A DNA stretch of 64,000 bases from a virus (lineage: Duplodnaviria; Caudoviricetes): the IMG/VR virus record IMGVR_UViG_3300048890_000142, positions 1-64,000 of that record; one strand, given 5' to 3'. The translations under genes and the position numbers were made by a program. Positions 26,421 through 58,787 of the stretch are shown here, piece by piece; position 1 is the first letter of the stretch, and every line of letters begins with the position of its first letter. Below the pieces are notes generated by a model that made no database searches, was not told the DNA's origin, and worked only from the letters and a program-made list of their open reading frames with translations.

Positions 26421-27118
26421 CGATCGAGGAGGACCCGACTTGGACGATCCTGGTTCCCACGCTCCAGCGGCGCGAGAACCGATTCGCGGTCCTGCGCGAC
26501 GAGCTGCTGCGCCAGACCGAACCCTACGGCGGACGCGTCCGCGTCTGCGCGTTGTGGAACCGCGGCCAGCGCGCCCTCGGCGAGCTGCGCCAGGCCCTGG
26601 TCACCTACGTGCTCAGCGATTACGTGTCCTTCGTCGACGACGACGACGAGGTGCCGGCCTACTTCGTCGAGGAGGTCGTCCGCGCGCTGGAGTCCTGGCC
26701 CGATCAGGTCGGCTGGCGGATGCAGTGCATCCGGGACGGCGCCATGTTGAAGCCCACCTTCCACAGCGTCAAGTACGGCTCCTGGTGTGAGGACGACGCG
26801 GGTTACTACCGAGACGTCAGCCACCTGAACCCGGTGCGCCGGGACCTCGCGATCAAGTGCGACTTCCGGGAGGGCAGTCCTCCGGAGGACGTGGCCTGGG
26901 TCAAGCAGATGCGCGGTCTGGTTCGGACCGAGCAGATGGTGCCCGACAGGATCATGTACTACTACCGATCGTCGTCCGCCGACAGTACCTGGCAACTGGG
27001 TAGCGTGGCCCCACCGACCGCCGAGGAGCTCGAGTCGGAACCACCTTACGTCGCCCACCGCGACTTCTTCTACCACCCGTGGTCCTACGGCCCGAACACC
27101 TGGGAGTCCCGTGTCTGA
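26417..27118 (+). CDS. Glycosyltransferase family 2 (GT-A)
   Basis: ILVPTL, YVSFVDDDD, PEDVAW. Confidence 0.85.
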   Translation: MTIEEDPTWTILVPTLQRRENRFAVLRDELLRQTEPYGGRVRVCALWNRGQRALGELRQALVTYVLSDYVSFVDDDDEVPAYFVEEVVRALESWPDQVGWRMQCIRDGAMLKPTFHSVKYGSWCEDDAGYYRDVSHLNPVRRDLAIKCDFREGSPPEDVAWVKQMRGLVRTEQMVPDRIMYYYRSSSADSTWQLGSVAPPTAEELESEPPYVAHRDFFYHPWSYGPNTWESRV

Positions 27119-28070
27119 TCGAGTTCTCATCACCGGCGTCACCGGCTTCGTGGGCAGTCACGTCCTCGAGCACCAGCTGCGGATACCGGATCCGCCGTGC
27201 GTCGTCGGCGTCGGATCGTTCCGGAGCAACGGCACCGCCGACCGGGTCCTGGACGCCCTGTCGGGTCACCGTGACCTCTGCTACACGCAGCTCACGCACG
27301 ACCTGACCGTGCCGATGTCCCCGCTTCAGCTACTTCAGCTGAACGGGGTGAACAGGATCGTCCACGTCGCCTCGCGCTGCTCGGTCGACGAGAGCATCCG
27401 GGACTCCGAGTCGTTCGTGCGCAACAACGTCGATCTACAGCTCACCGTACTGGAACTCGCACGAGAGCTCGGGGTGCACCGGTTCGTCCACCTCTCCACC
27501 GACGAGGTGTACGGGCCGTACTCGCCGAGCACCCTCAACGACCACCGTCCGTCGAGCCCGTACTCCGCGTCCAAGGCCGCTCAACTGGACCTGTGTTCCG
27601 CCTGGGCGACGACCTTCGGTGTCCCGGTCTCCGTGCTCACCAGCGTGAACATGTTCGGCGAGAGGCAGAGTCAGCTCGCGTTCGTCCCCCGCCTGGTGCG
27701 CCTGATGCTGGCCGGCGAGCCGGTCACCGTGCACCTCAGCGACGGCGTACCCGGCGGTCGCAACTACGTCTACGTCGGGGACGTGGCCCGACGACTCGTC
27801 GAGCTGTCCGAATCGCGGTCGGACGGAGCGGATCACCGGGTGGTCTTCGGCGCGGCCTTCGTCGACAACCTTGACCTTGCCCAACGGGTGGCCAAGATCT
27901 TGGACGTCGAGCCGAAGATCGATCTCGCAGAGGCCTCGGTCTCTCGCCCCGGCTACGACCACTCTTACGGCCTCGGCGGCGACTACAGCGTCGATTCCCT
28001 CACTCCGTTTGACTCTGCGCTACAGCGTACGGTCGAGTGGTTCGCGGAGCATCCCAAGTGGCTGGCGTAG
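27111..28070 (+). CDS. NDP-glucose 4,6-dehydratase (RmlB-like SDR)
   Basis: GVTGFVG, STDEVYG and YSASK all intact. Confidence 0.85.
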   Translation: MSDRVLITGVTGFVGSHVLEHQLRIPDPPCVVGVGSFRSNGTADRVLDALSGHRDLCYTQLTHDLTVPMSPLQLLQLNGVNRIVHVASRCSVDESIRDSESFVRNNVDLQLTVLELARELGVHRFVHLSTDEVYGPYSPSTLNDHRPSSPYSASKAAQLDLCSAWATTFGVPVSVLTSVNMFGERQSQLAFVPRLVRLMLAGEPVTVHLSDGVPGGRNYVYVGDVARRLVELSESRSDGADHRVVFGAAFVDNLDLAQRVAKILDVEPKIDLAEASVSRPGYDHSYGLGGDYSVDSLTPFDSALQRTVEWFAEHPKWLA

Positions 28071-28618: not shown

Positions 28619-29848
28619 ATGGCGAACGTCGGCTGGGTCGGGCTGGGCAAGCTGGGGGCGCCGTGCGCCGCCGCCCTCCAGCACTACGGCGAGCACGTCG
28701 TCCACGGCTACGACCTGCGCGGGACCGACCCGGGCGACTACTCCTGGTCTGACCTGAAGCCGGTCGAGCTCGTCGAGTCGATCGGTGACGTGGTGAAGCT
28801 CACCGACGAGGTCGTCTACGTCGCGGTCCAGACTCCCCACGCGCCGTTGTACGGCGGCGACCGGGTGACCCCGGAGCAGCTACTCGACTTCGAGTACGCC
28901 TACCTCGTCAACGCCGTCCGCGAGGTGTGCCTCGCGGCCAGGACTCAGCGCAAGCACGTCACGATCGCGGTCGTGTCGACCGTTCTTCCGGGCACCTTCA
29001 GCCGGTACCTGCGCCAACTGGCCGACGAGTACGCCACTTTCGTCTATCATCCGTTCTTCATCGCCATGGGTACCGAGGTGGACGACTTCGTCCGGCCGGA
29101 GATGGTCATCTACGGGACCGATCGCGACGGAGACCACGGGGTCGTCGACGAGCTGTACTCCCGCGTGCACGACGCTCCCGTCGCGAGCATGTCGATCGAC
29201 AGCGCCGAGCTCGCGAAGGTCGCCTACAACACCTTCATCACGGTGAAGATCGTGTTCGCGAACTCCCTCATGGAATTGTGCGAGGGCACCGGCGCGGACG
29301 TCGACGAGGTCACGGACGCGCTGGTCATGGGGACCCAGAGGATCACCTCCGGGCGGTACATGCGAGCCGGGATGGGAGACGGCGGAGGTTGCCACCCCCG
29401 AGACAACATCGCGCTCGCGACGCTGGGAGAGCGCCTGGGTGTCTCGACGGCCCTGAACGACTTCCTGATCCGTGCTCGGGAGGCCCAGACCAGTTGGATC
29501 GCCGACTTCGCGGTGCGCTGGACCCAACAGACCGACATGTCCGCGGTCGTACTGGGGCTGACCTACAAGCCGGACGTCCCGCTCACGGACGGCTCGCCGG
29601 CCCTCCTGCTGGTCTCGCTCCTCGAGGAGCGCGGCGTCGGCGTGAACGTCTACGACCCGCTCCTGAACAGGGAGGAGTCGCTCCAGCACTTCCTCGACCG
29701 GTTCGGTCCCCGGGTCTACGTGATCGGTACCGAGCACGCCCAGCTCCTCCGCCAGGCGTACCCCGCCGGCAGTGTGGTCATCGACCCGTTCGGTACCGTC
29801 ACCCGGTTCCCGGGCGTCACCTACGTCACCCCGGGTCGGAAGGGGTAG
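28619..29848 (+). CDS. UDP-glucose/GDP-mannose 6-dehydrogenase family
   Basis: GLGKLG, AELAKVAYN, GGGCHPRD (catalytic Cys), LGLTYKP. Confidence 0.9.
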   Translation: MANVGWVGLGKLGAPCAAALQHYGEHVVHGYDLRGTDPGDYSWSDLKPVELVESIGDVVKLTDEVVYVAVQTPHAPLYGGDRVTPEQLLDFEYAYLVNAVREVCLAARTQRKHVTIAVVSTVLPGTFSRYLRQLADEYATFVYHPFFIAMGTEVDDFVRPEMVIYGTDRDGDHGVVDELYSRVHDAPVASMSIDSAELAKVAYNTFITVKIVFANSLMELCEGTGADVDEVTDALVMGTQRITSGRYMRAGMGDGGGCHPRDNIALATLGERLGVSTALNDFLIRAREAQTSWIADFAVRWTQQTDMSAVVLGLTYKPDVPLTDGSPALLLVSLLEERGVGVNVYDPLLNREESLQHFLDRFGPRVYVIGTEHAQLLRQAYPAGSVVIDPFGTVTRFPGVTYVTPGRKG

Positions 29849-54744: not shown

Positions 54745-55707
54745 TCAGGTCCGCTCGAGCACGGCCTGGGCAGTGCGATTGACGAAGCGGTGGGAGTCAC
54801 CCTCCAGGGCACCCAGGAAGCGCGACCGATCAGTGCGGATACCGTCGGGGCGGCTCCACTCGAAGTACTCGCTCACGGCGTTCACCAGCCCCCAGCCGGT
54901 GCCGGCAAAGCCGACCGCCGGTCCTTCCTCGAACAACTGGGTGATCGTCCGGACCTGCTCGAGGCGCTTGGGACGATCGGGTAGCACGGAGGTGAGCACC
55001 TCGCGGGCGGCCGGCGAGTCGAGCCGGACGGAGTGCAGTCGGGCGGCCACGTCCGCGAAGGCGGAGGCGTAGTGGTCGGCCCGGGTCAGGGCCAGCTTCG
55101 CCTGGTCCAGCTTCGCGATCGGGTCGCCGACGTGGCGGATCGACCAGCGCTGCACGGCTCCGGTGACCAGGGACGAGAGGCCGAGCTGGTTCATGCACTT
55201 GTGCCTCAGGCTCAGCACCGAAATCTCGATGCCCTTGGACAGGTCATGCGAGGTGCGCAGGACCGCGTAGAGGTCGTGTTTGTCGACTTTTCCGCCCAAG
55301 TCCAAGTCAACTGCGAAGTGGTACGGGAACTGGACGACCATGAAGCCCTGCCGGCCGCCGCGCAAGGTGCCGGCGGCGACGTAACGCGGGTTGACCTCGT
55401 CCATGAAAGCGAAGGCGTCCCTATACTGCACCGGCGCGTAGCTGTCGGAGACGAACTCGAAAAACTGCCCCGTGTCCTTCCGAACGCAGGCGAACCGGGT
55501 CTCCTCGGTCGTCCAAGCCGGGCTGAGGGGCCGCGATCGGAAGGTGCCGGACGGCGTCCGGTAACCGGCTTCGGCGAGCTCGACGTCAAAGTCGAGGCCC
55601 CCGAGCCGCGCGGCCTCGGCCGCATCGACGTCCGGGTCCTCGATTACGGTCCCGATCTGCATCCACGGAACCTGGCGGGTGGTGAAGGTGGTGTCGGTCT
55701 GGATCAT
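54745..55707 (-). CDS. DUF932 / TIGR03299-type phage-plasmid protein
   Basis: PWMQIG, GLDFDV, YAPVQYRDAF, TSHD, CMNQL, IRHVG. Confidence 0.85.
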   Translation of the reverse strand: MIQTDTTFTTRQVPWMQIGTVIEDPDVDAAEAARLGGLDFDVELAEAGYRTPSGTFRSRPLSPAWTTEETRFACVRKDTGQFFEFVSDSYAPVQYRDAFAFMDEVNPRYVAAGTLRGGRQGFMVVQFPYHFAVDLDLGGKVDKHDLYAVLRTSHDLSKGIEISVLSLRHKCMNQLGLSSLVTGAVQRWSIRHVGDPIAKLDQAKLALTRADHYASAFADVAARLHSVRLDSPAAREVLTSVLPDRPKRLEQVRTITQLFEEGPAVGFAGTGWGLVNAVSEYFEWSRPDGIRTDRSRFLGALEGDSHRFVNRTAQAVLERT

Positions 55708-55855
55708 GTGCGGTCCGGCCTCCTCGGTCTAGTCGTTCGACGTGCTGGGAACTTTCTAGCACATAATCAAGTGCTGTGTCCACTAGCTGGACCGCGCCCG
55801 TCCGACAGGTCGAATGTCGGGTGGGACCACCGGGCGGGCGCGATCCCCTTCGAGG

Positions 55856-56080
55856 CTACGCCGGCTTCCAGGAGTGCCTCTTACCCAACGAGACGTGCCG
55901 GACCCGTCCGTCGGCCTTGAGTCGCCGGAGAGCCAGGTAGACCACGCTGGGCGAGACCTCGAGGGCCTCGGCCAGCTCGTACTTCGTCATCGAGTCCGGG
56001 GCCTCTTCGAGGACCCGTACCAGTCGGTCGTCACGCTGGATCGTCTCCTGGGGCCTCGGTCGGCCACGCCGCTTCGCCAT
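55856..56080 (-). CDS. Small HTH protein
   Basis: MTKYELAEALEVSPSVVYLALRRLK. Confidence 0.75.
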   Translation of the reverse strand: MAKRRGRPRPQETIQRDDRLVRVLEEAPDSMTKYELAEALEVSPSVVYLALRRLKADGRVRHVSLGKRHSWKPA

Positions 56081-57104
56081 CGTCCGCCTCCTTCCGGGGG
56101 ATCGGGCTCGGGGCGTCCCTGCGCCACCGACCCACCTCGTGCTCGACCCAGGCGTAGGTGTGCGCGACCCCGCCGACCAACGCGGTCGAGGGCTCCCAGT
56201 CCAGGTACTTGCGGATCAGGGTGTTGTCCGAGCTCCGACTCCGGACCCCGTGCGGGGCGTCCGGTAGGTACCGCCGCTCGACGGACACCTCCGCCGCGTA
56301 TTCGATCGCCGAGAGGAGCTCGTCGACCGTGTGCCCCTCGGCGAAACCGAGGTTGAGCGGTTCGTCGATGTTGGATCGCGCGATCCGCAGGATGCCCTCC
56401 ACGCAGTCGTTGGAGTGGGTGAACGAACGGACCTGGGTACCGTCTCCCCACACCGCGACGTGGTCCGCGTAACCGAGCTTGATCTCGGCCACCTGGCGGC
56501 ACAGTGCGGTGACCACCTGCTCGCGGCCTCCGCGCCACGGAGAGCAGGGGCCGTAGACGGCGTGCAGGCGGGCGACGCGGGTCTGCAGGCCGCCCTCTTC
56601 CTGGAAGTGCCTGCACAGTCGCTCGCCGAACAGGCGCTCCCAGCCGTGACCGCCCTCGGCCTCGGCCGGGTAGGCGTCCTGCTCGCGCAGCGCCGCGGCG
56701 TCGCCCTCGCGCTGCAGGTGCCGCGGGTACACGGCGGCCGACGACGCGTAGAAGACGCGTCCCCAGCCGTAGTGCGCGGCGGCCTCCAGCACGTTGACGG
56801 TCGCCTTGACCGACATGGCCGGAGCGAGGTGGTTGGTGCCGACGTAGCCGACGCCGCCGGTATCCGCGGCGAGGTGGTAGACCTCGTCGAACGCCCGGTG
56901 CTCCATGCTCGCCAGCAGCTCCAGGGGCTGGGGCTCGGAGACGTCCATCAGGTCGAAGGTCCTGGCGCTCAGGTGGTGGTCCTGCCACCAGTCGGCGCGG
57001 GACTTGCGGTCGACGGCGACCACCTCGTGGCCGTCCTTGACGAGCCGGCCGACGAGGTGGCCGCCGACGAATCCGCCGGCGCCGAGTACGAGTGCGTAGC
57101 TCAC
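56031..57104 (-). CDS. GDP-mannose 3,5-epimerase-like SDR with substituted catalytic residues
   Basis: GAGGFVG, AADTGG, WGDG.Q.RSF and SDNT conserved; SSAC to SSAA, YGWEK to HGWER, REKAP to REQVV. Confidence 0.85.
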   Translation of the reverse strand: MSYALVLGAGGFVGGHLVGRLVKDGHEVVAVDRKSRADWWQDHHLSARTFDLMDVSEPQPLELLASMEHRAFDEVYHLAADTGGVGYVGTNHLAPAMSVKATVNVLEAAAHYGWGRVFYASSAAVYPRHLQREGDAAALREQDAYPAEAEGGHGWERLFGERLCRHFQEEGGLQTRVARLHAVYGPCSPWRGGREQVVTALCRQVAEIKLGYADHVAVWGDGTQVRSFTHSNDCVEGILRIARSNIDEPLNLGFAEGHTVDELLSAIEYAAEVSVERRYLPDAPHGVRSRSSDNTLIRKYLDWEPSTALVGGVAHTYAWVEHEVGRWRRDAPSPIPRKEADDGEAAWPTEAPGDDPA

Positions 57105-57322
57105 GGTGGGGGTCTCTCCTCTTCGTTCTCTCGGTCGGTTCTCAGTTCGCGGTCCGGAGCCCAGCACTGGAGCCCGGCCTGGTCGTCGAGGTCGACGACC
57201 CAGCCCGCCTCTTTCCCCGCGTCCATCGGACCGCTGATCGTGCCGGAGCACCCGGACCAGGGATGGTCCGGGGCGACGATCGTGACCCGGTCCCCCGGCG
57301 CGTAGTCGTAGCCACCTGTCAC
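57101..57322 (-). CDS. Small SH3/KOW-like protein
   Basis: PGDRVTI...GTI..WVVDLD. Confidence 0.6.
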   Translation of the reverse strand: MTGGYDYAPGDRVTIVAPDHPWSGCSGTISGPMDAGKEAGWVVDLDDQAGLQCWAPDRELRTDRENEEERPPP

Positions 57323-57648
57323 CGAGGTACCGCCTCACTGTATTGCGGGTGGACGTGGTGCCAGGTGCCGGCCGCCGCGTCAGTCTCGGCGTGTTTGCAT
57401 CCCTCGACCAGCGTGCGAGCCAGGGTCGGCACGAACAGCGCGCAGCCGTCCGAGTACCACCACTGCTCGGTCTGGATCTCGCGGATCGGGCGTCCCTCGC
57501 TCCGGTCGAAGGACTTCGGGACCGTGGTCCGCGTGGAGACGACGACGTACTGGCCGACCTCGGTGACCACCGCGGGGTGGCACTTCGGATCGTCGTAGTA
57601 CCCGCTGACGTAGTGGACGACGGCGCCCACGACGGGGCGATCGCTCAC
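57319..57648 (-). CDS. Hypothetical protein
   Basis: VVHYVS..CHPAVVTEV...GTWH. Confidence 0.65.
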   Translation of the reverse strand: MSDRPVVGAVVHYVSGYYDDPKCHPAVVTEVGQYVVVSTRTTVPKSFDRSEGRPIREIQTEQWWYSDGCALFVPTLARTLVEGCKHAETDAAAGTWHHVHPQYSEAVPR

Positions 57649-57902
57649 GGCGTCACGTCCGGGCCGGGCAGGGGAGGCGGGAACGGCGGCACCAGGTCGG
57701 GCGCCGCGAGCCAGCCGTGCTTGTCCGCGGTGCGGAACGCTCGCGCGAAGCGCCAGCGTTCCGGATGCGGAACCGTCACCGTGCCGTCGTCGTGGTGGAC
57801 TACGGGCAGGTTCCCGCCCGTGTTCTGGAACATCCACAGCAGCGGGTCGGTGATAGACAACGTCCAGGTGTCGTGCATGACCGCCTGGGTAACGTCAGAC
57901 AC
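57645..57902 (-). CDS. Hypothetical protein
   Basis: GTGA coupling. Confidence 0.55.
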   Translation of the reverse strand: MSDVTQAVMHDTWTLSITDPLLWMFQNTGGNLPVVHHDDGTVTVPHPERWRFARAFRTADKHGWLAAPDLVPPFPPPLPGPDVTP

Positions 57903-57911
57903 GGCCGCTCC

Positions 57912-58787
57912 CTAGATCGGCATCTGCGGCGGGGGCGGCGGCGCGACCGGGGTCGCGGACGCCTGCTGGACCGGTGCTGGGGGAACCGGAGGAGCCTGGG
58001 GCATCTCGGGAGCTGGCGGCGCGGCGACCGGGGGCGCGTAGGCCGGGGCCTGGTACACCGGCGCCGGCGGTGCCTGGTTGGTCATCTCCGCGACGGCCGA
58101 GTCGACGGGTGCCTGCGGGGGCGCGACGGGGACCTGCTGCACCGGCGGTGCGGGAGGCGGGGGCGCCGCGTAGACCTGGGCCGGCTGCAGCGACTGAGCA
58201 GGCTGCAGCGGCTGGGCCGCCGGAGGAGCGACCGGGTAACCCGGCACCGGTGCGGGTGCCGGAGTCGCGACGGGGACCTGCGGTGCCGGCGGAGGCGGGG
58301 GCGTCGCCGGGACCCCCGGGATCCCGGGAAGGTTTGGGACACCTGGAACGCCGGGAGCTCCCGCTGCGGGAACGCCCGTGGCCGGTCGGAACCCCTCGCA
58401 GTTGTTGCGCATCTCGCCCTGCCACTCGCGGTGCCCGAGCTTGACGTAGGCCTCGCGGCCCATCAGCGCGGAGGCCACCGGGTCCAGCGAGCCCTGCGAG
58501 CCGAGCGCGGCGAAGAACTGCTCGTCCAGCCCGAACGCCTTCATGTGCCGGAAGAAGATCGAGACCGCGTTGGGGTTCTCCAGCGTCAGGACGAACTGGT
58601 TGAACACCTTGCGCGGGGCGTAGGGGCCTTCGGTAACCTCCATCTTGACCTTGATCATCGGCTTGCCCGACTGCGCGGTGGTGGCGGTCGACTCGATGAT
58701 CCGGATCCGGTACTCCCCGTCGGGGAGCGCCTCGAAGCTGACGGACTTCGCGTCCTGAATCGCCTGGTTGAAGTTGATCGTCGTCAC
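57912..58787 (-). CDS. DUF669-type ssDNA-binding protein with Pro/Ala-rich tail
   Basis: FEALPDGEY..I...SGKPMI...GRKVF-like motif; follows a Sak4-like gene. Confidence 0.75.
   Translation of the reverse strand: MTTINFNQAIQDAKSVSFEALPDGEYRIRIIESTATTAQSGKPMIKVKMEVTEGPYAPRKVFNQFVLTLENPNAVSIFFRHMKAFGLDEQFFAALGSQGSLDPVASALMGREAYVKLGHREWQGEMRNNCEGFRPATGVPAAGAPGVPGVPNLPGIPGVPATPPPPPAPQVPVATPAPAPVPGYPVAPPAAQPLQPAQSLQPAQVYAAPPPPAPPVQQVPVAPPQAPVDSAVAEMTNQAPPAPVYQAPAYAPPVAAPPAPEMPQAPPVPPAPVQQASATPVAPPPPPQMPI

Follow-up and report, generated by a model that had tools for sequence, protein, structure and literature searches.

We analysed a stretch of 64,000 nucleotides of phage DNA (hereafter the window), which represents the first 64 kb of the IMG/VR record IMGVR_UViG_3300048890_000142 (Duplodnaviria; Caudoviricetes), and focused on one of its genes, which encodes a 357-aa protein (P0001) of the GME family (GDP-mannose 3,5-epimerase). 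This protein, referred to below as the variant GME, is an extended short-chain dehydrogenase/reductase (SDR) with a remodelled active site, and it is the only gene left of a sugar-decoration cassette that related phages possess in full. We consider it, with a probability of about 0.5, to be a pseudoenzyme, that is, a relic of a phage GME that would have been exapted when the cassette was lost and that selection would now maintain for binding NAD and a GDP-hexose without turnover. The source is a complete virus record of 86,650 bp with direct terminal repeats, which bears out the assignment of the gene to a phage in an earlier note on this DNA. The window has a G+C content of about 68%, encodes WhiB-type genes and carries a terminase whose closest matches are from Streptomyces phages (42% identity). 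We therefore concluded that the source is an uncultured phage of actinobacterial type.

The variant GME matched the profile of NAD-dependent epimerases/dehydratases, PF01370, with 135.7 bits (curated cut-off 20.9), as well as PHROG 540, annotated as 'nucleotide-sugar epimerase'. In a phmmer search against the PDB, the closest solved structures were chains of Arabidopsis GME (E-values of 1.5e-68 to 1.1e-67, covering residues 6-327 of the query), and the next structural family was UDP-glucuronate decarboxylase (UXS) with an E-value of 3e-27. The open reading frame (ORF) is intact, with a GTG start at 57104 and a stop codon at 56031-56033, and the motifs GAGGFVGG, AADTGG, SSAA, GHGWER, RLHA, REQVV, WGDGTQVRSF, SDNT and WEP are all present. 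The earlier note had described an intact ORF following the GME family from end to end and had located the codons of His153 (CAC, 56646-56648) and Arg157 (CGC, 56634-56636); both descriptions were found to be correct.

The equivalences between residues of Arabidopsis GME and the variant GME were taken from a HMMER alignment together with the motif positions. In the plant enzyme, Ser143, Tyr174 and Lys178 form the redox triad for oxidation and reduction at C4 (PMC8787198), Cys145 and Lys217 are the acid/base couple of both epimerisations (PMC2279256, PMC8787198), Arg306 acidifies the catalytic Cys and Arg243 contacts the diphosphate of the sugar nucleotide (PMC8787198), and Asn203 is a conserved residue of the 'orange wall' (PMC2279256, PMC8787198). 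Five of these eight fingerprint residues are replaced in the variant GME, including the Tyr and the Lys of the triad (Table 1), while Ser122 (equivalent to Ser143), Arg226 and Arg290 are kept. The statement in the earlier note that every catalytic residue is replaced therefore holds for Cys145, Tyr174, Lys178, Lys217 and Asn203, but it was overstated with regard to the triad Ser and the two Arg residues. Because both proton-transfer residues, at the positions of Cys145 and Lys217, are gone, the protein is firmly predicted to be unable to carry out C3/C5 epimerisation.

To place these replacements among all constrained positions, we considered the 90 alignment columns with a conservation of 90% or more among 111 intact homologues. 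The clade of phage genes that share the replacements (the variant clade, see below) keeps 73 of them, shows a different but fixed residue in 9 (I13V, M82T, C124A, Y153H, K157R, K196Q, A197V, P198V and K204Q) and has relaxed 8, Asn182 being one of the latter. Counted per protein, the variants deviate at 12-17 of the conserved columns, compared with a median of 2 for the intact proteins and 1-3 for the nearest intact relatives. The changes cluster at the residues of the chemistry. The dinucleotide site is unchanged (G8, G10, G11, F12, G14, D32, L78-A79 and S121-S122), with the NAD-specifying Asp32 (VVAVDRK) invariant across clade and family, and so are the residues that hold the nucleotide sugar (W219-G-D-G, Q224, R226, F228, R290 and S292-D293-N294). 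From these columns we infer that the protein still binds its ligands, without catalysis. In the alignment with the variant GME, the chain of the Arabidopsis structure 2C54 also has an Arg at the position of Lys178, and that crystal is described as containing NAD+, GDP-L-gulose and GDP-4-keto-L-gulose (PMC8787198); as far as structure goes, an Arg at this position is compatible with the binding of ligands. Residue 182 is a case of its own: its codon (window:56559-56561; orthologues in L002 and L009) is GCC (Ala) in most members of the clade, whereas two members have AAC (Asn). These codons are two nucleotides apart, and their distribution on the tree requires more than one change or recombination.

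The alignment with GME and SDR homologues proposed in the earlier note was carried out on the 120 best homologues from a collection of 5.8 billion proteins. The results showed that H..R together with REQVV occurs in 9 of the 120, exactly those that are 70-100% identical to the variant GME; SSAA is found in eight of these and SCAS in the ninth. The other 111, all at most 56% identical, retain SSAC, YGWEK and REK. A search of IMG/VR found 394 viral relatives, of which the best 80 were inspected; one further record (L010, 92% identical) carries the replaced set, and the other 79 keep the catalytic residues. Thus H153, R157 and Q196-V-V are common to the nine database proteins, L010 and the window copy, about ten phage genes with 70-100% identity. 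In a FastTree phylogeny with midpoint rooting, the variant genes are monophyletic (support 100, stem of 0.53 substitutions per site) and nested among intact GMEs of cassette-type phages. The replacements are fixed in one clade, and chance does not account for them, because only the 9 closest of 120 homologues share the changes and 111 are intact. By tblastn against a phage collection, no close GME was found in cultured actinophages, and the matches were mostly cyanophage genes with less than 43% identity. The alignment of these cyanophage 'nucleotide-sugar epimerase' genes (H1-H37) to the variant GME begins only at about residue 50-72, which may reflect either divergence of the N-terminal Rossmann segment or a shortening of the genes.

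The earlier note had proposed that the fold is retained by selection. We estimated ratios of nonsynonymous to synonymous substitution (dN/dS) by the NG86 method; since a G+C content at third codon positions (GC3) of about 0.92 compresses dS and inflates the ratios, they are used for relative comparisons in the same context only. Within the variant clade dN/dS was 0.17-0.50. For the same genome pairs, each compared with L005, it was 0.19-0.40 for the variant GME, 0.17-0.21 for AAA_24, 0.13-0.46 for SNF2, 0.24-0.48 for PDDEXK and 0.21-0.52 for DUF2786. The intact GMEs of two GC-rich sister phages, L004 and L092, which are 72% identical, gave 0.40, equal to that of variant pairs at the same divergence. 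The new residues survive synonymous turnover, with Thr encoded by ACC or ACG, Ala by GCC or GCG, Arg by CGC or CGG, Gln by CAG or CAA and Val by GTC, GTA or GTG, and the codon of Arg157 (CGC or CGG) is at least two nucleotide changes away from AAG. Moreover, every recovered copy has an intact ORF, and the frameshifted relatives that the earlier note had named as a sign of neutral decay did not appear. The variant GME is clearly under purifying selection, with a constraint like that of the neighbouring replication genes and of the intact sister GMEs, and this level of constraint, together with residues kept through synonymous turnover, led us to reject simple decay.

The nearest intact relatives, P0010 (in L092) and P0011 (in L004), are 55-56% identical to the variant GME and lie in the same replication module, as do more distant intact GMEs in L014, L018, L028, L040, L053, L075 and L076. 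In these sister phages GME is part of a conserved, tightly overlapping and translationally chained cassette in the order o82, o441, o371, GME, dUTPase_2, o93 and a C5 DNA-methylase-like gene, followed by an orthologue of the winged-helix gene that overlaps the variant GME in the window. The structural model of o441 (pLDDT 80) had T4 beta-glucosyltransferase (BGT) as its six best PDB matches (E-values of 7e-7 to 5e-6), above generic GT-B enzymes, and the model of o371 (pLDDT 78) matched MtdL with an E-value of 6e-22, a TM-score of 0.76-0.79 and 27% identity. MtdL is a mutase of glycosyltransferase family GT75 that converts GDP-L-galactopyranose into GDP-L-galactofuranose (PMC9937993), and phage gene clusters that pair a DNA glycosyltransferase with the sugar epimerase it requires have been documented (bioRxiv 10.1101/2023.12.21.572611). 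An intact GME, an MtdL-like mutase and a BGT-like transferase would make a coherent candidate route from GDP-mannose to an L-galactofuranosyl product, the acceptor of which we infer to be DNA. In the complete genome of the phage studied here, o441, o371, dUTPase_2 and o93 were not found, and the methylase-like gene gave only a weak, unrelated match. No gene of the thymidylate synthase family (Thymidylat_synt) was found in this genome either, compared with one in each of the four complete genomes searched among the cassette phages named above. Of the sugar-decoration cassette, the variant GME alone remains, a context that the earlier note had not recognised.

These results suggest the following course of events. 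The ancestor of the variant GME would have been a working phage GDP-mannose 3,5-epimerase that performed the first step of the cassette, its product passing to the MtdL-like GDP-L-galactose pyranose-furanose mutase and then to the T4-BGT-like glycosyltransferase. The lineage of this phage deleted all other cassette genes. On the stem branch of the variant clade the residues of the chemistry (the Cys and Lys of the acid/base couple, the redox dyad formed by Tyr and Lys, and also Asn203) were replaced, while the Rossmann NAD site and the residues holding the diphosphate of the GDP-sugar were kept and the protein was maintained by purifying selection. It may now act by occupancy, sequestration, sensing or interference instead of conversion.

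Several points weigh against this binder reading. A His can serve as a general base and an Arg can stand in for Lys at the nicotinamide ribose, and hydride transfer might thus still take place at the Ser-His-Arg centre of the variant GME. Some extended SDRs, those with an SMK triad, are active although they have no Tyr (quoted in PMC2279256). A pure binder must either have an output or act stoichiometrically, and the analysis identified no partner. In addition, the retained ligand pockets are read from alignment columns, the dN/dS values are inflated by the high GC3, and the loss of the cassette and the loss of the residues are linked by a single evolutionary event.

The alternative that survives best is a re-tooled enzyme, which would bind NAD and a GDP-hexose and use Ser122, His153 and Arg157 for redox chemistry at C4 only, without C3/C5 epimerisation; we regard it as possible, though on the unlikely side. 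Such an enzyme might epimerise a GDP-hexose at C4, or it might form or reduce a 4-keto group, and its product might go to the late virion-glycan operon of this phage, which has a 4,6-dehydratase and no reductase. In chemical terms the changes from Tyr to His and from Lys to Arg are conservative, and they then became fixed; the ligand-site residues are kept, and, because the K178R crystal of GME contains a 4-keto intermediate, an Arg at this position supports hydride transfer. Nevertheless, literature searches found no characterised SDR centred on HxxxR, and Asp32 is of the NAD type that goes with a tightly bound cofactor rather than of the type found in NADPH-exchanging reductases (rule quoted in PMC2279256).

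The late glycan operon itself (window:25114-29848) bears on this alternative in both directions. It contains, at the Pfam level, genes for GT2 glycosyltransferases, an RmlB-like dehydratase and a UDP-sugar dehydrogenase, with the large terminase directly downstream; no 4-ketoreductase was seen in it. Its RmlB-like enzyme, with TDE and YxxxK present, agrees with the statement in the earlier note that a catalytically intact sugar enzyme lies elsewhere in the window. The dehydratase and dehydrogenase genes also occur in the variant-clade phage L010 and are absent from the four complete cassette-type genomes, so that among the IMG/VR genomes compared the cassette and the late glycan operon have a complementary distribution, which counts in favour of this alternative. 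However, the window dehydratase resembles dTDP-glucose dehydratases, whereas the variant GME keeps the GDP-type residues, and some 26 kb separate the glycan operon from the variant GME, which is part of the early replication operon. The segment window:30017-31381 was noted alongside the late glycan operon.

Comparable losses in other proteins give a further hint in favour of this alternative. A variant-clade profile was used to search 1.84 billion representatives, and 150 of these were compared. Most of the proteins retrieved were canonical GMEs; a few GME-like ones, 33-44% identical to one another and thus distant, had undergone similar losses. At the positions of Met102, Cys145, Tyr174, Lys178 and Lys217 they have, respectively, Thr, Ser, His, Lys and Gly (P0153); Ile, Ala, His, Lys and Arg (P0185); Thr, Ser, Ala, Lys and Ser (P0164); Thr, Ser, Glu, Lys and Gly (P0249); and Thr, Asp, Ala, Lys and Asp (P0245). 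Of the 150 representatives, 5 have Thr at the Met102 position, and all five are without the Tyr; among the 111 intact homologues this Thr does not occur. The independent repetition of Met102 to Thr, Tyr to His, Ala or Glu, Cys to Ser, Ala or Asp, and Lys217 to Gly, Ser, Arg or Asp hints at convergent co-substitution, a repeated alternative active-site state rather than random damage, and would suit a re-tooled enzyme. On the other hand, these GME-like proteins are metagenomic singletons. P0185 is located in a bacterial glycan cluster, and in BLAST the neighbours of P0153 (L094) resembled neither the cassette nor the replication module.

On the strength of this pattern one may propose, only tentatively, that the variant GME is the founding and best-sampled member of a class of GME derivatives that recurs. 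Members of this class would have Thr instead of Met102, another residue (often His) instead of the Tyr, and substitutions at the Cys and at Lys217, with unchanged pockets for NAD and the GDP-sugar, and they would have been selected for a new ligand-dependent function. In the present phage this function would be occupancy-based, for example interfering with how the host or competing DNA-glycosylating phages use GDP-mannose or GDP-L-galactose, and would have been adopted when the phage gave up the decoration of its own DNA.

Two further proposals are special cases of the binder reading. The first is a ligand-sensing co-regulator of the NmrA kind, which would bind the 74-aa winged-helix protein encoded next to the variant GME and tune early transcription by the level of NAD or GDP-sugar. 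NmrA and HSCARG/NMRAL1 are Rossmann SDRs that have lost the catalytic Tyr, keep dinucleotide binding and act through partner binding rather than catalysis. The variant GME has likewise lost the Tyr and retained the Rossmann site, and its gene overlaps the winged-helix gene by 46-53 nt in all clade members seen (one short contig left out). The likeness is nevertheless one of kind only, since the variant GME belongs to another SDR subfamily, keeps a nucleotide-sugar site as well and gave no match to the NmrA family PF05368 at E-values up to 0.01. The overlap also has another origin. The winged-helix protein is 47% identical to HTH88 of the sister phage L004, a helix-turn-helix (HTH) protein encoded about 1.9 kb downstream of the intact GME, from which it is separated by dUTPase_2, a 93-aa ORF (o93) and the methylase-like gene. 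Because the orthologue in the sister phage is three genes away from an intact GME, the overlap is a scar left by the deletion of these three genes. The idea of the earlier note that the adjacent HTH protein is a partner is thereby weakened, and we consider the co-regulator unlikely.

The conserved C-terminal tail of the variant GME (..AWPTEAPGDDPA) was considered as a new functional motif and rejected, as the same DNA encodes the N-terminal arm RRGRPRPQET of the winged-helix protein. In L004 the arm is free of any overlap and shows the same degree of conservation. The arm thus explains the conserved tail, which weighs against a co-regulator. It is invariant and basic (R-x-G-R-P-R-x-Q-E-T-x-x-R-D), is shared by the variant and the cassette phages and is similar to DNA-contact arms of the AT-hook-like kind. 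In PADLOC the winged-helix protein gave a marginal match to the Csa3 winged HTH only, and the variant GME, DUF932, o441 and o371 gave no match.

The second special case is a dominant-negative or competitive factor, which would form dead heterodimers with the GME of the host or of a co-infecting cassette phage, or serve as a sink for GDP-mannose or GDP-L-galactose. We consider this proposal distinctly improbable, and equally so its supposed effect, a block of the DNA decoration of a rival or of mannose-dependent glycans of the host. The identity of 55-56% to the nearest sister GMEs, the retained ligand-site residues and the existence of GME homologues in some actinobacteria (according to the names of P0084 and P0119) are in its favour; stoichiometric sequestration of a metabolite, however, is costly. 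Finally, a neutrally decaying leftover, a pseudogene in the making, would fit the absence of the pathway partners and the AT-to-GC direction of several changes, as expected from mutation bias, but it is very improbable given that all ORFs are intact, that core replication genes and intact sister GMEs have the same dN/dS, that 73 of the 90 family-conserved columns are kept and that synonymous turnover has left the new residues unchanged.

Table 1. Positions of the variant GME, its key residues and the related loci (window coordinates unless a contig is named; residue numbers in the first column, except Tyr and Lys equivalents given under Remarks, are those of the variant GME).
Feature	Position	Strand	Remarks
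Variant GME (P0001), 357 aa, GME-family extended SDR, active site remodelled	56031..57104	-	Based on homology, clade-wide conservation and selection
GAGGFVGG, glycine-rich NAD loop, residues 8-15	57060..57083	-	Kept; G8, G10, G11, F12 and G14 family-conserved
Thr82	56859..56861	-	Family Met (Arabidopsis Met102); AADMGG to AADTGG
Ala124	56733..56735	-	Replaces catalytic acid Cys145; SSAC to SSAA
His153-Gly-Trp-Glu-Arg157	56634..56648	-	Replaces SDR dyad Tyr174-x3-Lys178; HGWER instead of YxxxK
Ala182	56559..56561	-	Replaces Asn203; polymorphic in the clade (Ala 7/9, Asn 2/9)
R194-E-Q196-V-V198	56511..56525	-	Replaces REKAP; catalytic base Lys217 to Gln196
Arg226	56427..56429	-	Arabidopsis Arg243, kept
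Arg290	56235..56237	-	Arabidopsis Arg306, kept; within GVRSRSSDN
73-aa ORF without known family	57101..57322	-	TGA stop overlaps GTG start of the variant GME (GTGA)
85-aa ORF, orthologue of sister-phage o82 preceding the sugar cassette	57645..57902	-	Marks upstream deletion edge
74-aa winged-helix protein gene	55856..56080	-	Start overlaps final 50 nt of the variant GME; orthologue of L004 HTH88, not overlapped there
DUF932-family gene	54745..55707	-	Downstream flank of the locus, conserved among related phages
RmlB-like 4,6-dehydratase gene	27111-28070		TDE and YxxxK intact
UDP-glucose/GDP-mannose dehydrogenase-family gene	28619-29848
Sister cassette locus	L004:7297-13162; L092:2227-8061

As to the layout of the locus, all contigs of the variant clade share the gene order DNA polymerase A, SNF2, PDDEXK_1, AAA_24, DUF669, small ORFs, variant GME, overlapping winged-helix gene, DUF932, WhiB and DUF2786. 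The GTGA overlap between the stop codon of the preceding ORF and the start codon of the variant GME, and the lack of promoter-like sites across 55500-58200, point to a gene that is translationally coupled and internal to the replication-module operon, without a leader of its own; the early-type leader described in the earlier note was thus not borne out. Two differences among the contigs were observed. The DUF932 gene following the winged-helix gene is missing from one variant-clade phage (L005 to L008; L005:11249-11515 compared with window:54745-55707) and is present in all other relatives. DNA polymerase A is 926 aa long in L009 (L009:504-3284) and 602 aa long in L005 (L005:1964-3772), and tblastn with the 602-aa form aligns in part, which suggests that the longer form carries an insertion or a fused domain.

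Compared with known systems, the variant GME is closest to GDP-mannose 3,5-epimerase proper (GM35E/GME, EC 5.1.3.18; Arabidopsis structures 2C54, 2C59, 2C5A and 2C5E), with which it shares end-to-end homology, the NAD loop and Asp, the triad Ser, Arg243, Arg306, WGDGxQxRSF and SDN. It differs in having Ala, His, Arg, Ala and Gln for Cys145, Tyr174, Lys178, Asn203 and Lys217, Thr for Met102 and Gln for Lys225. It thus departs from the published GM35E fingerprint and would be a descendant of the family rather than a functional member. With the MtdM/MtdL-type GDP-L-galactofuranose pathway of A201A biosynthesis the connection is through the sister phages, which pair an intact GME, an MtdL-like GT75 and a T4-BGT-like GT-B enzyme at the orthologous locus; unlike this pathway and the phage DNA glycosylation clusters, the present phage is without mutase, transferase, dUTPase_2, methylase-like gene and ThyA homologue. 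The SMK-triad SDRs of the FlaA1/CapE type are active without the canonical Tyr, so the loss of the Tyr alone is no proof of inactivity (PMC2279256); those enzymes, however, keep the Lys and have different acid/base residues, whereas the variant GME has lost the Lys and both epimerisation residues.

Literature searches found no phage pseudoenzyme among nucleotide-sugar SDRs. To our knowledge, pseudoenzymes are well described in eukaryotic signalling and hardly at all in phages. The locus offers a clean natural experiment, in which intact sister enzymes (55-56% identical) working in a pathway can be set against a lone, altered and selected form at the same position, and it makes testable the question of why an enzyme is retained after its pathway has been deleted. 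It also gives a warning for annotation, as calls of phage 'nucleotide-sugar epimerases' can conceal proteins that are not epimerases. As for the biology of the phage, its lineage seems to have abandoned T4-style sugar decoration of DNA, and it has a late glycan operon that is absent from four more distant complete cassette phages.

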